DNA of 64,000 nt from an uncultured delta proteobacterium. GTDB taxonomy: Bacteria; Desulfobacterota; Binatia; Binatales; Binataceae. A program made the position numbers and the translations under genes. Each line of letters opens with the position of its first letter. The first letter of the stretch is position 1. The notes under the pieces were generated by a model, which was not told the DNA's origin, made no database searches, and saw only the letters and a list, made by a program, of their open reading frames with translations. This document shows, piece by piece, positions 14,693 through 56,065 of the stretch. The stretch covers positions 1,408,001 through 1,472,000 of the forward strand of contig CAWCDG010000004.1 in assembly GCA_963794325.1 (NCBI GenBank), written 5' to 3'.

Positions 14693-15589
14693 CTACTGGA
14701 GGATTTTCTTGAGGCTAGTCGGCAGGGGGCTTTGGAAATTCATTGAGGTGCCGGAGACTGGGTGGCGGAAGGTTAGTTCGCATGAGTGGAGTGCCAGGCG
14801 GCCGGCGGGGTCGGTCGACGCGCCGTATTTGCGATCGCCGACTACAGGATGACCGAAGGCGGATAGCTGGACGCGGATCTGGTTTTTGCGGCCGGTTTCC
14901 AGGGTCAACTCGAGCATCGCGTTGTCGCGGCCTTTTCGCAGGACGCGGTAGTGAGTGATGGCCAGTTCGCCGCCGCGATCGACGCGATGCATCCTGAGTG
15001 ACTTGCTCTCGACGAGATTGTCGCGGAGGGTGCCGTCGGCCTTCGAGGGGATGCCTTCGACGACGGCCAGGTACTTCTTGGTGACGCTTTTCCAGTTCTC
15101 TTGAAGGGCAGCCTGTACTGCGTGGCTTCTTGCGAAGAGCATCAGGCCGGAGGTTTCGCGATCGAGTCGATGCACGATGAAGGCTTGCTGCGACGGCGAG
15201 CCGGTGACCGCCTTCAGATGGTCGTTGAGGATTCGATGCGCGGTGCGTTCTTTCTCGGCCTCCGAGCCCATTGAAAGAAGACCCGCCGCTTTGTCGACCA
15301 CGACGAGGTCATCGTCGAGATGGATGATTTTCAAGCCCTGGCGATCGAGCGATGGCGCAGGAACCTGCTTACCCGTCACAATCGTCACGACGTCGCCCGG
15401 TTGCAACTGCGTGTCGTGCTTGACGGTAGTCATTCGCGAGACGGTTACGGCGCGGAAGCGTAAGAGATCCTTGGCCGCTTTGCGCGAGAGTCCCAGCGGA
15501 AGAGTCATCAGATAGGGCAGCAGCTCGCATCGCGACGAGACGCTGAATTTGTGGTCACGCGCCGGCATTGCGGTAGTATGGTCGCCCAC
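14693..15589 (-). CDS. RluA-family pseudouridine synthase with S4-like N-terminus
   Basis: VVDKAAGL, HRLDRETSG (catalytic Asp), TGRKNQIR, GDRKYG, LALH. Confidence 0.93.
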   Translation of the reverse strand: MGDHTTAMPARDHKFSVSSRCELLPYLMTLPLGLSRKAAKDLLRFRAVTVSRMTTVKHDTQLQPGDVVTIVTGKQVPAPSLDRQGLKIIHLDDDLVVVDKAAGLLSMGSEAEKERTAHRILNDHLKAVTGSPSQQAFIVHRLDRETSGLMLFARSHAVQAALQENWKSVTKKYLAVVEGIPSKADGTLRDNLVESKSLRMHRVDRGGELAITHYRVLRKGRDNAMLELTLETGRKNQIRVQLSAFGHPVVGDRKYGASTDPAGRLALHSCELTFRHPVSGTSMNFQSPLPTSLKKILQ

Positions 15590-15779
15590 AATCGATGAAG
15601 CGGCAAGAACAACACGATCACTTAATTGGATGTGAAACCGCCGTGGGTTTCATGCTTTCCTGGGCAGGGTAACCCTGCACTTTAGAATTAAGGAAGTGAA
15701 TAGTACACTGAGTAATCGACAAATACTCACTTGATTCGTTCTGGTGGGAACCTTGTTGAGACTATTCGGATAATTCAAA

Positions 15780-15809
15780 TTGACACTCCGCAATTACTAA
15801 CCATATTAT
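15780..15809 (+). promoter_or_regulatory. Sigma-70-like promoter
   Basis: TTGACA-18 bp-TATTAT; the predicted +1 near 15816 coincides with the start of the conserved leader stem. Confidence 0.6.
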
Positions 15810-15815
15810 CCAATA

Positions 15816-15937
15816 GCCGGGATCGATATAGATTTGAGTCCGGCTTTGATCCAGCCCGACGGTGGCCTTTCCGCTCGCCTTTGACCACGGTTCGCTAGAC
15901 CATCGTAGATAGTGTGCGTTTCAAGGCTGGAGGAGGT
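15816..15937 (+). ncRNA. Putative structured 5' leader RNA, copy 1
   Basis: Paralogous to 18816..18937, with a 40-bp identical core and a covarying 5' hairpin; ends at a GGAGG SD. Confidence 0.65.
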
Positions 15938-15942
15938 TCTTC

Positions 15943-16266
15943 ATGGAATTCTCTGCTAGACGTGGCGTCTCGCGAGTCAGCATTTTGTGCGGATTCGTGA
16001 CCATGGATCTTTACTGGCTGTACCTGATTTGTATATCGCACGTGATGAATCCAGTGAGTGTTTTTGTCGTGGACCTGACCGGGCGGCATTTGCAGCCGGG
16101 GCAGATCGGAAGTCTCACGACGACGTTGGCCTGGAGCGAAGTGCGGTTAGCGGTCGTAGCGTCTTTGATCGTATTCGGGCTGGCCACGTTGATCGCGGAT
16201 GCGGGCATGAAGATGTTTGCGAGCCCGGATTCCGACCGTCTCTCATTGGCAACGACCATCGCATGA
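15943..16266 (+). CDS. Small hypothetical membrane protein
   Basis: GGAGG about 7 nt before the ATG; hydrophobic segments; no family recognised. Confidence 0.5.
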   Translation: MEFSARRGVSRVSILCGFVTMDLYWLYLICISHVMNPVSVFVVDLTGRHLQPGQIGSLTTTLAWSEVRLAVVASLIVFGLATLIADAGMKMFASPDSDRLSLATTIA

Positions 16267-16326
16267 GCGAGCACGAATCCACGGGGATTTGATCATTCTT
16301 AACGAAAATCGGACTCGAGAAAAAAA

Positions 16327-16551
16327 ATGAAACCTATAGTAATGATTGGCGCGATCGTCGCGCTGCTTGGGCTTCTGGCGCTTGCTTTGCCGGAGTTCAC
16401 CACCAATCAGACGAAGAACGTTGCAACGCTGGGCGATCTCAAGATCCAGGCGAACGAGCAGACCTCGCATGTAATCCCGCCTATTCTCGGAGGCGCTGCG
16501 TTGATCGTGGGGTTGGTTATGGTGACGGGCGGCCTTTACCAGAAACGCTAG
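16327..16551 (+). CDS. Small 2-TM protein (DUF3185-like)
   Basis: TM-short loop-TM with IPPILGG motif. Confidence 0.75.
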   Translation: MKPIVMIGAIVALLGLLALALPEFTTNQTKNVATLGDLKIQANEQTSHVIPPILGGAALIVGLVMVTGGLYQKR

Positions 16552-16627
16552 TCGTCAGTCGCAGCCGAAATACTCACTTGACTACTCAGTCGAACATTCA
16601 CGGCCAATTGTTGACTCGAGAACAACC

Positions 16628-18460
16628 GTGGAAAAACTCTCGACAGCCCCGCTAATTGCAGAGCACGAGCAGGATGAACGCCCGAGCGGCCTGAGTTCCG
16701 CGGGACCGGTTGTCGCGATAATCCTCGCGACGGTGGTGCTCTCTTACGCCAAAGAAATTTTGATGCCGTTGACGATGGCTGCCCTGCTGGCGGTCATCTT
16801 CAGTCCGATTGCCACGCGGCTCGATCGTTTTGTGGGGAGCTTCGTCAGCGCCGCGCTGGTGGTGGTGACTACGGTTACGATTGTTGCTGGGATTGGATAT
16901 TTCGTAACGGTCGAGCTTACCTCGGTCGCCGTGCAGGTCACCGACTATACCGACAATATCGCCACCAAGCTGACCGCATTGAAGGGTAGTACGCCCGAGT
17001 GGATGCTGCGGGTGCAGGACGGGATCAAAGACGTCGAGCAGCAGATCAACGAAATGACGCCGCGAGCGAACCGCGCGAAACCGGCCAAAGTGGTTCAGGT
17101 ACCGGCGGTTCAGTCAGACCTTGAGCAGGCGGTGAAGCCGGCCGTCCCAATATTGTCGGGACTGTTTGAAGGGCTGCTGATCGTAGTGCTGATGTTCTTT
17201 CTGCTGTATGGCAGAAATGACTTGCGCGATCGGCTGGTGCGGCTTGCGGCACGCGGCCGGATTACGCTTTCGGCCGAGGCGATTGGGACTGCGGGCGAAG
17301 CGGTGGGTCATTACCTGTTGCTATTCGCTCTGACTAATCTCGGATACGGAGTAGCTATCGGACTGACTATCTGGGCGATTGGGTTGCCGAACCCGATTCT
17401 GTGGGGAGCGCTGGCGGCGCTCTTTCGTTTCGTGCCCTACGTTGGGGTTCCGATTGCCGCTCTACTCCCGATGTGTGTGGCCTTCGCGGTTTTCCCCGGA
17501 TGGAGCAAGTCGGTCGAGGTGTTCGCCGCATTTGTCATTTTCGATCAAATAGTGAGCTACCTGGTCGAGCCTTTCCTGATCGGCCGCGGAGTTGGATTGT
17601 CGCCGCTGGGCCTGTTGTTCTCCGCGATGTTCTGGGGATGGCTGTGGGGGCTTCCGGGACTGCTGCTCGCCACCTCATTGACCGCATGCCTTAAGGTCGC
17701 TGGAGACTATATTCCGGCACTCGGCTTTTTCGCCGTGCTGTTTGGAGATGATAGCGCCCGCGAGGACTATCACGACTACTACCGCAGCCTGCTCGAGCTC
17801 GATCAGACGAGTGCGCGCACTATCGCGGTCAGGTACTGCGACAAAAATGGGCTCGAGCCGACCTTCGACGACGTACTGGTCCCGGCGGTCGTTCTGGCCG
17901 GCGAGGAGCGCTTCGAAAATCATATCAGCGAGGAGAATCAGAAGCTGATTTTCGACACGACTGTCGCGCTGGTGAAGGAACTTGGCGATCGGTTCAACAA
18001 ACCCCGGTACAGAGGCCGGCTCCGAATCGTGGGTATCGTGCCGCCCGGCGAGGTTCACAGCCTGGGGCTGCTGATGCTGCTGGAACTGCTCCGGCGGACG
18101 GGAATCGCGGCAAATTTTTTCGGCATGGATAAATCGCCGGCAGAAATTTGCGCCTTTGTGAATCAATACGGACCTGACATGGTTTTTGTTTCCTGCACCA
18201 CGACAGAATGTATGCCCGCCGCGGTCGAACTGGTGCGCGTGCTGGTCGCGCAGTCGCCGCACCTGACCATCATCGGCGGCGGAGCGGCCGCGCTGGTGCA
18301 TCGCGCGGAACTGCTCGAGGCTGGCGCCACGGAAATCTGCGGCAGCAGGGGCGAAGTACGACACGCGGTACGACTGTACGCACTCAGACGCTCGGTTTCG
18401 CGGTCATCGCAGATCGGTGTCGCCCGCCCTGGAGTCGGCGCTCAGACTACAAATAGCTAG
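16628..18460 (+). CDS. AI-2E family transporter with C-terminal cobalamin-binding module
   Basis: FVPYVG and WGWLWGLPGLLLA AI-2E motifs; C-terminal helical cap plus EVHSLG, SCT and GGG Rossmann motifs. Confidence 0.88.
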   Translation: MEKLSTAPLIAEHEQDERPSGLSSAGPVVAIILATVVLSYAKEILMPLTMAALLAVIFSPIATRLDRFVGSFVSAALVVVTTVTIVAGIGYFVTVELTSVAVQVTDYTDNIATKLTALKGSTPEWMLRVQDGIKDVEQQINEMTPRANRAKPAKVVQVPAVQSDLEQAVKPAVPILSGLFEGLLIVVLMFFLLYGRNDLRDRLVRLAARGRITLSAEAIGTAGEAVGHYLLLFALTNLGYGVAIGLTIWAIGLPNPILWGALAALFRFVPYVGVPIAALLPMCVAFAVFPGWSKSVEVFAAFVIFDQIVSYLVEPFLIGRGVGLSPLGLLFSAMFWGWLWGLPGLLLATSLTACLKVAGDYIPALGFFAVLFGDDSAREDYHDYYRSLLELDQTSARTIAVRYCDKNGLEPTFDDVLVPAVVLAGEERFENHISEENQKLIFDTTVALVKELGDRFNKPRYRGRLRIVGIVPPGEVHSLGLLMLLELLRRTGIAANFFGMDKSPAEICAFVNQYGPDMVFVSCTTTECMPAAVELVRVLVAQSPHLTIIGGGAAALVHRAELLEAGATEICGSRGEVRHAVRLYALRRSVSRSSQIGVARPGVGAQTTNS

Positions 18461-18591
18461 TTGTTTCAGTATTAAGGCTTTTTCAGTATTAAGGCCGCGC
18501 TCCGTTGTCGCGCGCGGACTGAGAGAGCAATCGCGCGCTCTCGAGGGAATGGCGACCGGATTTAGGTCGGGAGGTTTAGGTCATTAACGGA

Positions 18592-18630
18592 AACCTAACC
18601 CCTAACCCCTTCCCGAGCGGGAAGGGGAAC
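18592..18630. repeat. BoxC/REP-like palindromic intergenic repeat, copy 2
   Basis: 39-bp identity with 14582..14620. Confidence 0.85.
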
Positions 18631-18815
18631 AAGATTAGGAGGAGAACCCTTCCCCTGGAACGGGAACCGGAATGGATAGTCGATAAATGACTAATGGATT
18701 GAGTATGTATATTGTGCCTCCGATTAGTATTTGTATTGTTCCTCCAAGCACCTTAACTAGTACTCACATAGTAAATCTAGTCGCATTCTGAAATTAGGGT
18801 GATTACTATCTACTT

Positions 18816-18937
18816 GTCGGAATCGATATACGGTTCGAGTCCGACTCTGATCCAGCCCGACAGTGGTCTTTCCGCTCGCCTTTGACCACGGTTCGCTAGA
18901 CCATCGTCAAATCGACATTACCAAGGCTCGAGGAGGT
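18816..18937 (+). ncRNA. Putative structured 5' leader RNA, copy 2
   Basis: Paralog of 15816..15937; TACTAT -10 box at the same offset (18804-18809). Confidence 0.65.
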
Positions 18938-18975
18938 CCACGCGAGACGTCACAGTCTCACGGAATTTTCCGCCC

Positions 18976-20250
18976 ATGAAGATAAACTTGAAAAATAAAT
19001 TGAGGAAGACGATTGCCCTGTCGGGCGCGATCGTGGCGTTTTCGATCGCGGCGCCGTCGTTCGCGCAATACGATAACGGCCCCGGCCCTGGCTATGACAG
19101 TCCCGGCTACGGCAGCCCAGACTACAACAGCGCGGGCTACAACGACGAAGGCTACAACAACCCAGGCTACCAAGGCGCCGGCTACTACGGCCCGGGATAT
19201 TACGGTGGACCCGGACAAGAGGGATGGGGCGCCTACGATAGTGGTCGCACCTGGCGAGGCGCGCGATGGTGGCATCGGCACGACATCATGTGGTTCTACC
19301 GGCATCATCCGGAATGGGCCGTGATGGACGCGTTGTGGCAAAACCAGGATGGCGACTACGACAATGACAACGTCTGGCACGACGCCTACTGGTGGCATCA
19401 GAACAACCCGGATTACTTCTACGCCAATCATCCAAACTGGATTTCATGGGATCCGAGCTGGCGTAACTCGGACGGCGCGTACGACGGGCAGCACAACTGG
19501 CATTATGGCCAGTGGTGGTACAACCAGAATCCCAACTGGGTTTCCGCCAATCATCCCAACTGGCTCAGCGAGCATCGCAACTGGGCGAGTCATACTGAAG
19601 TGCAAGACCATCGGGCCGTGATGCGGACCGAGAACGAGGGTAATGAGCGCTCTCGCCAGCAGGCGGCAGTTCAGCAGAACCGCGTGAATGAAGGCGCGGC
19701 AATTAATCAGCGCAATGAGGCGACTCGTAACGAGCAGGCCTCACGTGAGCAGCAGAACCAGCAAAATCGCGCGAATGAGAGGGCGGCGACCAATCAGCGC
19801 AACGAGCAGACTCGTGTGAATGATCGGGCGGCGACCAATCAGCGCAATGAGCAGACGCGCATGAATGAGCGAGCCGCAACCAATCAGCGCAACGACGCGA
19901 ATCGCAACGAGCAGGCGTCGCGTGAGCAGCGGCAAAATCAGGCTACGCGGAACGAGCAGCAAGCTAATCGCAACCAGCAGCAGGCGACCCACAATCAGGA
20001 GCGCGCTGCGCAGAACGAGCAGCGGGCGACTCGCAACGAGCAGCAGGCGACGCATCAGCAGCAGGAACGTCCGCAGCAGGCGCAGCGTCAGCAGCAGGAG
20101 CGTCCGCAGCAAGCGCAGCATCAGCAGCAGGAACGTCCGCAGCAGGCTCAGCATCAGGAGCACCAGGCCTCGCATCAGCAGCAGTCGTCGAACCATCAGG
20201 GCGGTGGACATCAGGGCGGCGAGGGCGCAGTCCGCGAAGCAAAGAAATAG
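18976..20250 (+). CDS. Secreted repeat protein: Gly/Tyr/Pro region, three Trp/His-rich repeats, long Q/N/R/E low-complexity tail
   Basis: Signal peptide ending SFA-Q; repeats GxYD...W...WW.......HP.W; QQQERPQQAQ repeats. Confidence 0.8.
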   Translation: MKINLKNKLRKTIALSGAIVAFSIAAPSFAQYDNGPGPGYDSPGYGSPDYNSAGYNDEGYNNPGYQGAGYYGPGYYGGPGQEGWGAYDSGRTWRGARWWHRHDIMWFYRHHPEWAVMDALWQNQDGDYDNDNVWHDAYWWHQNNPDYFYANHPNWISWDPSWRNSDGAYDGQHNWHYGQWWYNQNPNWVSANHPNWLSEHRNWASHTEVQDHRAVMRTENEGNERSRQQAAVQQNRVNEGAAINQRNEATRNEQASREQQNQQNRANERAATNQRNEQTRVNDRAATNQRNEQTRMNERAATNQRNDANRNEQASREQRQNQATRNEQQANRNQQQATHNQERAAQNEQRATRNEQQATHQQQERPQQAQRQQQERPQQAQHQQQERPQQAQHQEHQASHQQQSSNHQGGGHQGGEGAVREAKK

Positions 20251-55989: not shown

Positions 55990-56065
55990 TGGAGCCACCC
56001 GCCGGATTCGAACCGGCGACCTGCTGATTACGAATCAGCTGCTCTACCAACTGAGCTAGGGTGGC
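55990..56065 (-). tRNA. tRNA-Thr(CGT)
   Basis: 76-nt cloverleaf GCCACCCTAGCTCAGTTGGTAGAGCAGCTGATTCGTAATCAGCAGGTCGCCGGTTCGAATCCGGCGGGTGGCTCCA with encoded CCA. Confidence 0.98.

Follow-up and report, generated by a model that had tools for sequence, protein, structure and literature searches.

The window analysed here, a stretch of 64,000 nucleotides (nt) from an uncultured delta proteobacterium of the family Binataceae (contig CAWCDG010000004.1), carries two copies of an element that is probably a structured 5′ leader RNA of a family not catalogued before, about 110–125 nt long, cis-regulatory and defining a post-transcriptional regulon. The kind of RNA, a cis-regulatory leader, is known; the family is new. 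With over 200 distinct representatives, some ten copies in each genome, clear covariation and unpaired bases that are nearly invariant, the element has the profile of the better orphan candidates for riboswitches and protein-binding leaders.

Two copies in the window

The element is present at 15816–15936 (copy A) and 18816–18936 (copy B). A 40-nt core is identical between them (15867–15906 and 18868–18907) and occurs exactly twice in the window, with 0 occurrences expected from 100 shuffles. The pairwise alignment of the two copies has 83% mean column identity, and their similarity has as its first base a G (15816/18816) and extends to a GGAGG tract. A sequence-only reading of this DNA had already placed both copies at these sites and noted the identical core, and exact matching confirmed it. 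It was also right about the pairs of the 5′-terminal hairpin (P1), including an A.G mismatch and a compensatory C-G to U-A change, about −10 boxes at an equal offset (TATTAT and TACTAT, each ending 6 nt before the starting G), and about the downstream genes being unrelated; the 107- and 424-amino-acid (aa) proteins that they encode fall into separate BLAST clusters. To its description has to be added that the conserved part continues to AAGGC (15923–15927 and 18923–18927) plus the following GGAGG. That the copies are spaced by exactly 3000 nt is a coincidence. The parts of the two copies are as follows, with the evidence for each in brackets where it is of one kind.

15780–15809, + strand: putative promoter of copy A, with a −35 box TTGACA at 15780–15785, an 18-nt spacer and a −10 box TATTAT at 15804–15809 (sigma-70 match 11 of 12)
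15816–15844, + strand: copy A P1, the 5′-terminal hairpin GCCGGGAUCGA/UUUGAGUCCGGC, with a conserved A.G mismatch (alignment)
15847–15855, + strand: copy A, 5′ strand of P2, UGAUCCAGC (covariation)
15862–15867, + strand: copy A, 5′ strand of P3, GUGGCC (covariation)
15868–15882, + strand: copy A, 15-nt loop of P3, UUUCCGCUCGCCUUU, in which GCCUU at 15877–15881 is the proposed pseudoknot strand
15883–15888, + strand: copy A, 3′ strand of P3, GACCAC (covariation)
15894–15902, + strand: copy A, 3′ strand of P2, GCUAGACCA (covariation, RNAalifold)
15903–15922, + strand: copy A linker, variable in sequence and constrained in length
15923–15927, + strand: copy A invariant AAGGC, the proposed partner of the loop GCCUU
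15929–15936, + strand: copy A putative Shine-Dalgarno sequence GGAGGAGG, 6 nt before the ATG at 15943
15943–16266, + strand: gene after copy A; its 107-aa product matches nothing in Pfam or NCBIfam and belongs to a family with 19 members behind the element
18804–18809, + strand: copy B −10 box TACTAT (promoter logo)
18816–18845, + strand: copy B P1 (covariation)
18848–18856, + strand: copy B, 5′ strand of P2, UGAUCCAGC (covariation)
18863–18868, + strand: copy B, 5′ strand of P3, GUGGUC (covariation)
18869–18883, + strand: copy B, 15-nt loop of P3, with GCCUU at 18878–18882
18884–18889, + strand: copy B, 3′ strand of P3, GACCAC (covariation)
18895–18903, + strand: copy B, 3′ strand of P2, GCUAGACCA (covariation)
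18904–18922, + strand: copy B 19-nt linker (parsed copies)
18923–18927, + strand: copy B AAGGC (conservation)
18930–18936, + strand: copy B GAGGAGG, conserved, with no start codon within the next 3–16 nt
18937–18975, + strand: copy B subtype-specific extension, with a hairpin GAGAC/GUCUC ahead of the ATG (by eye, no statistics)
18976–20250, + strand: gene after copy B; its product, 424 aa long and secreted, is rich in Trp and in Gln/Asn, matches nothing in Pfam and falls in the largest protein family seen behind the element

Copy number and distribution

BLASTN against the window's own genome found 5 copies, and a covariance model built from these five (R1) raised the number to 9 full-length copies and 1 truncated copy. 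With R1, 32 of 36 genomes of the same genus were positive, with 1–12 copies each, and so were 16 of 40 sampled genomes of the family, which places the element in 14 of 30 genera when the window's own genome is counted. In other families of the class, R1 found it in 0 of 24 genomes from 12 families and a broader model of 114 sequences (R2) in 0 of 36 genomes from 14 families. An exact-pattern scan over one genome per species returned at least 123 stretches; among the matches listed (80 loci), 77 were full-length model matches, and almost all records were titled Candidatus Binatus, Binataceae or "uncultured delta proteobacterium". Pattern loci in Paenibacillus, Verrucomicrobiales and Holophagaceae were rejected by the covariance model as chance matches, and a degenerate regular expression for P1 returned noise only when run on the genome. 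Together, the fetched loci gave 230 model hits, or 204 distinct sequences. The element appears to be restricted to one family of the class Binatia. Five full-length leaders (L155, L169, L204, L220 and L227; L, G and C numbers are our own handles for loci, genomes and contigs) stand on contigs titled Terriglobales, Pirellulales, Acidiferrales or Acidobacteriota, and because the motif is otherwise confined to one family, these titles probably reflect mislabelled or mis-binned records.

Groups of 3–5 leader copies within a few kilobases to 16 kilobases were seen in G012:C6:388131–404253, G034:C1:1763961–1769731 and G009:C4:334709–345788. The genes that follow the leader, and that it would regulate, form islands in several genomes, as with the copy pair of this window.

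Secondary structure and covariation

The structure was assessed on a structure-blind MAFFT alignment of 142 sequences, obtained from the 204 by removing 9 weak or truncated hits and thinning to below 88% identity. By this comparison of sequences, the fold is a 5′-terminal hairpin, P1, followed by a long irregular hairpin, P2/P3. In a model consisting of P1, P2, P3 and the pseudoknot described below, 91.2% of the cells are paired and 18 of the 28 pairs change on both sides; none of 500 shuffles reached any of five structure measures, and slid controls were 21–51% paired. P1 shows double changes at all 10 of its pairs. P2, formed by UGAUCCAGC and GCUAGACCA, is 97.8% paired, with one pair being AU in 120 sequences, GC in 9 and GU in 9, and at two of its positions a non-canonical pair is conserved, A.C in 131 of the 142 sequences and C.A in 118. 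P3 has the strands G(U/C)GGYC and GACC(A/G)C, the second pair of which is UA in 106 sequences and CG in 32, and it closes a near-invariant 15-nt loop (G63, C65 and U66 invariant; C64 and U67 at least 90% conserved). RNAalifold recovered P1, P2 and part of P3 from the same alignment. One pair of P1 (alignment columns 12/40) is G-U in 66 sequences and would be C.A on the other strand; such G-U pairs are frequent, and therefore the structure belongs to the RNA of the + strand.

Inflation of the counts by kinship was corrected for by independent contrasts, counted over the supported branches of a tree built without the paired columns. Pooled over the helices, the 3′ partner changed in the same way in 13.5 contrasts and in the other way in 2.2, whereas mis-paired control columns gave 5.0 and 6.0, respectively. 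The covariation that the sequence-only reading had proposed on two copies thus persists in a larger set of homologs, where the pooled contrasts exceed their mis-paired controls, and both P1 and the GUGG(C/U)C:GACCAC helix that it had drawn recur on the 142-sequence alignment. Two of its other pairings find no support. The alternative pairing GUGGYC:GACCAU is found in 70.8% of the cells, against 70.8% in shuffles, and the helix TCCAGCC:GGCUGGA in 74.6% against 74.1%, with 61 of 142 cells unpaired at the A:U position; the bases of UGAUCCAGC pair instead with GCUAGACCA in P2. A conserved and structured aptamer in the 5′ untranslated region with covariation support, one of the generic marks of a riboswitch, is what this element has.

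AAGGC tail and a likely pseudoknot

Downstream of P2, a linker of free sequence, 18–20 nt long in 150 of the 171 parsed copies, leads to AAGGC, each base of which is conserved to at least 97%. Read as a fourth helix with GCCUU on the 3′ side of the P3 loop, AAGGC is paired in 99% of the cells, with 1 double change. It is reasonably likely that AAGGC docks onto this GCCUU as a pseudoknot, which would set the ribosome-binding site against the folded core, beside the CUUCC of the loop. Exact compensation is seen in L095, where GUCUU goes with AAGAC, and in L332, where GCCCU goes with GGGC and which came from a metagenome scan that selected the loop side only; L072 and L124, with GCUUU, keep a G.U wobble, and in seven further copies the mismatches are confined to the end pairs of the pseudoknot. 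The fixed length of the linker would fit a strand that reaches back along stacked P2-P3 helices of about 18 base pairs. Variants that inform on the pseudoknot are few. A family-wide pattern for changes at C64 had matches in 0 of 165 genomes, and a metagenome pattern for changes at U66 matched 63 stretches, 3 of which are true copies by the model.

Three sister variants (L101:901–1015, − strand; L102:901–1020, − strand; L137:901–1035, + strand) share P1 and UUGAGCC with the element; these divergent relatives, which are without the 15-nt loop, are also without AAGGC, and their 3′ half has a hairpin UCAAG..CUUGA ahead of GGCGGGAG. The truncated copy of the own genome (L026:1501–1582; G000:C5:36814–36895) retains just P1 and UUGAUCCAGCG, after which come a ribosome-binding site and a gene for a 65-aa glycine-rich membrane protein. 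This copy suggests that P1 is a separable module.

Promoter and transcript start

When the 50 nt upstream of the 204 distinct copies were stacked ungapped on the first base of the element, the logo showed TAnnnT at −12 to −7 (T at −12, 0.55; A at −11, 0.83; T at −7, 0.81) and TTG at −36 to −34, with no other upstream conservation. Because these promoter boxes are position-locked to it, the first base of P1 is the predicted start of transcription, and the leader would be the 5′ end of the mRNA. The earlier proposal of a transcribed leader beginning at +1 is borne out to this extent, namely by the position-locked promoter logo.

Shine-Dalgarno region

A GGAG-type tetramer lies 2–6 nt 3′ of AAGGC in 145 of the 156 copies having one, and in a second parse it lies within 12 nt of AAGGC in 175 of 190 copies. 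In 130 of these 175 a start codon stands 3–16 nt beyond the tetramer, and by its sequence and position the GGAG tract is the Shine-Dalgarno sequence in most copies. The same purine tract may pair with the CUUCC of the loop. Since the 15-nt loop cannot pair over its whole length while P3 is closed, the two 5-base-pair contacts GCCUU:AAGGC and CUUCC:GGAGG can be read, as a speculation, as alternatives that would form a simple ON/OFF switch. The search for a terminator between the element and the ribosome-binding site, or for an obvious switching platform in the core element, gave nothing.

Leaders of the copy B type (18937–18975 in the window; L029, L041, L076 and others) have an extension of about 40 nt between GGAGG and ATG. 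Two hairpins in it, GUCC..GGAC and G(A/G)GAC..GUC(U/C)(C/U), share GGGAC and exclude each other, with apparent compensatory changes by eye, and no Shine-Dalgarno sequence adjoins the ATG. This extension could be a subtype-specific expression platform.

Downstream genes and candidate partners

For 196 of the 204 copies a downstream open reading frame (ORF) was called, and the encoded proteins fall into 49 BLAST clusters, the following among them.

Secreted Trp-rich proteins, including those after copies B and C of the own genome: 60 of the 196 called proteins, no family match
Hydrophobic membrane peptides of 21–25 aa (MYLPISLG...): 45 copies plus a related cluster of 4, no family match
Proteins of 68–134 aa, including that after copy A: 19 copies, no family match
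AurF-like di-iron oxygenases: 9 copies, PF11583
BON-domain proteins (OsmY-like below the cut-off): 3 copies, PF04972
OmpA-family proteins, an RRM protein, an acyl-AMP ligase and an LPG-synthase-like membrane protein: one or a few cases
CsbD-like protein: one or a few cases, 39 bits, just under the 40-bit cut-off

Of the 196 proteins, 109 have an N-terminal hydrophobic segment; in a crude genome control the share among long ORFs was about 20%. The gene set is biased toward envelope and stress-type proteins and is not uniform. The suggestion in the sequence-only reading that the leader stands ahead of stress genes therefore holds for part of the set, the BON-domain, CsbD-like and OmpA-family proteins. 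For two of the downstream families, a protein language-model atlas returned "hypothetical protein" clusters only, all below 0.9. The leader would group small secreted and membrane proteins specific to this lineage under shared regulation, and would be a first functional handle on them. The 424-aa secreted protein after copy B (18976–20250, + strand) is Gly/Tyr-rich and Trp-rich, with WW..HP.W repeats and long Gln/Asn/Arg-rich segments, and matches neither Pfam nor NCBIfam.

As for protein partners, no match to CsrA (PF02599) or Hfq was found in the own genome, which is 85% complete, so that their absence is unproven. The same genome encodes five RRM_1-domain proteins (G000 C4:84589, C4:85075, C4:1018236, C7:193436 and C2:410634), and an RRM gene in another genome is preceded by a motif copy. 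For the loop, no convincing partner RNA acting in trans was found in the own genome. The only exact genomic match to a 14-nt complement of the loop (G000:C4:600308) is antisense inside a long ORF and was dismissed as a chance match. The loop has no special complementarity to the 16S rRNA of the genome, and the score of the tail against the conserved GCCUUG region of 16S rRNA lay in the lowest 1.5% of shuffles, four segments having been tested.

Relation to known RNA families

Rfam 15 at gathering scores had a sole hit in the whole window, a tRNA gene at 55993–56065 (− strand). At E-values up to 10, the region 15500–19300 gave two unrelated weak hits, both outside the element, and at E-values up to 1 nine further element loci gave none; the covariance-model scan of the window, both copies and nine more loci thus agrees with the first impression that the element belongs to no Rfam family. 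A full-text literature search, of which result lists were read, returned nothing on regulatory RNA in Binatia or Binatota.

Several known leaders resemble the element in part. ROSE (RF00435) is an RNA thermometer in the 5′ untranslated regions of small heat-shock genes of Rhizobiales, in which the Shine-Dalgarno sequence is sequestered in a conserved 3′ hairpin with a bulged G. Like the element, it is a leader of about 100 nt present in several copies, stands ahead of stress-type genes, ends at the Shine-Dalgarno sequence and defines a post-transcriptional regulon by a shared 5′ untranslated region. The present element, however, does not match its model, is most conserved in unpaired bases, has a likely pseudoknot and no conserved hairpin around the GGAG tract, and no hsp20 was found among the downstream proteins scanned. 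The GEMM cyclic di-GMP-I riboswitch (RF01051) also occurs in many copies per genome ahead of heterogeneous genes, often for secreted or unknown proteins, and the ydaO cyclic di-AMP riboswitch (RF00379) in many copies ahead of osmotic and cell-wall genes; both have strongly conserved unpaired nucleotides. Neither matched the element at the E-values given above (10 for the window copies, 1 for the nine loci), and the architecture of the element, P1 with one long hairpin and a tail, differs from theirs. A pseudoknot between a loop and a 3′ tail just 5′ of the ribosome-binding site, with translational control inferred, is shared with preQ1-I/II and SAM-II, whereas the element is much larger, its tail lies outside the enclosing P2 and is reached by a 19-nt linker, its downstream genes give no metabolite hint, and the covariation of its pseudoknot is thin. 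The stabiliser in the ompA 5′ untranslated region of Escherichia coli is a hairpin that starts at +1 ahead of an envelope protein gene, as P1 would do by its predicted start; stabilisers of this type are simple hairpins without a family-wide core, whereas P1 is here one module of a larger conserved fold. Leaders bound by CsrA/RsmA carry GGA motifs in hairpin loops and over the Shine-Dalgarno sequence; in the element the P1 loop positions are poorly conserved and the invariant tail is AAGGC, not GGA. A peptide-leader attenuator was rejected: the sole start codon in the element, the GUG of P3, is GCG in 32 of 142 sequences, and no terminator follows.

Proposed mechanism and rival explanations

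A cis-regulatory leader of this kind would act on translation initiation by making and breaking contacts between loop and tail, and its base-paired 5′ end would probably also affect mRNA stability. In this way 5–12 otherwise unrelated genes per genome could be tied into one post-transcriptional regulon, made up of small secreted Trp-rich proteins, 21–25-aa membrane peptides, BON, CsbD-like and OmpA-family proteins, and others. As to what would trigger it, rough estimates leave a small molecule or second messenger, and equally an RNA-binding protein such as one of the five RRM proteins of the genome, as tentative possibilities; that nothing is sensed at all is rather doubtful, and temperature or ionic conditions are unlikely. 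In its most specific form, in which we place little confidence, the element is a new riboswitch class: an aptamer formed by P2/P3 and the pseudoknot would sense a global signal (second messenger, alarmone or ion), AAGGC:GCCUU docking would leave the ribosome-binding site free and GGAGG:CUUCC capture would hide it, and an envelope and stress regulon of about ten genes per genome would be controlled. If this holds, the uncultured phylum Binatota would have its first described regulatory RNA. Binatia abound in soil and peat and are known, to our knowledge, only from metagenome-assembled genomes.

Several results weigh against a regulatory leader of this design. The start site, and even the existence of the RNA, are predicted from promoter logos only. 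On well-supported branches the independent events per pair are few (0–2.6) and no single pair is significant, and single-sequence folding is no better than that of shuffled sequences (z −0.15 to −0.92). The pseudoknot strands are almost invariant, with just the 2 compensations in support, and L129 (AACGC), L324 (GCCAU) and L297 (GCCGU) have uncompensated internal mismatches. Covariation is absent from the CUUCC:GGAGG pairing (85.1%, with shuffles at 84.9%), as is register specificity, a test that is limited by the Shine-Dalgarno sequence being constrained anyway. Predicted accessibility of the Shine-Dalgarno sequence is 0.22 in 175 copies and equally 0.22 in 100 controls whose upstream sequence was shuffled. 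In 45 of the 175 copies, copy B included, the GGAG tract has no adjacent start codon and is still kept; because it is kept there, the purine tract itself is suggested to be part of the motif. Finally, just 5 of the 15 multi-member protein clusters are mostly envelope proteins, as judged by an N-terminal hydrophobic segment, and the gene set is heterogeneous, with AurF-like oxygenases and acyl-AMP ligases included.

Some of these results would suit a constitutive 5′ module without sensing, in which P1 and P2/P3 protect the mRNA from 5′-end-dependent decay or serve as a standby or enhancer site for the ribosome, giving strong and stable expression of small envelope proteins. P1 begins at the predicted +1 and leaves no unpaired 5′ bases, P1 alone stands ahead of a small membrane protein in the truncated copy L026, the core element is without a terminator or obvious switching platform, and the accessibility of the Shine-Dalgarno sequence equals that of the shuffled controls. 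However, a stabiliser needs neither a near-invariant 15-nt loop nor A.C mismatches, a length-locked linker or an invariant AAGGC, and here the unpaired positions are the most conserved. Conservation that peaks in unpaired positions usually goes with tertiary contacts or the recognition of a ligand or protein, as in riboswitches and protein-binding leaders, and we regard a purely constitutive role as fairly unlikely.

Two further readings detach the element from the mRNA that it precedes. Processing or premature termination could release the RNA as an independent small RNA acting in trans, with the downstream genes incidental, as the high conservation across paralogous copies and their clustering within a few kilobases (four in G012:C6, for example) would allow. 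This is highly improbable: the stretch from the element to the ribosome-binding site contains no terminator, a GGAG tract and start codon follow directly in 130 of 175 copies, the sole exact genomic complement of the loop sits within a coding gene, and about ten gene-fused copies of one RNA would be an unusual layout for a trans-acting RNA. The conservation could alternatively lie at the DNA level, as an operator for a transcription factor in the initial transcribed region or as a repeat or mobile element that spreads a promoter cassette; P1 and P2 are inverted repeats, a common feature of operators, and the copies are multiple and dispersed. But compensatory changes preserve the pairing and not the sequence, only this strand shows frequent G-U pairs, similarity sets in abruptly at +1 with only the −10 and −35 signals kept upstream, the alignments show no terminal repeats or target duplications, and in 14 genera conserved copies precede orthologous genes, so that this reading has hardly any chance of being correct. 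A cis-regulatory leader RNA is therefore preferred.

Other features of the window

Between the two leaders, the window encodes at 16628–18460 (+ strand) an unusual 610-aa fusion of an AI-2E family transporter domain with a C-terminal B12-binding domain. The gene for this fusion is preceded by a 74-aa ORF at 16327–16551 that matches no family.

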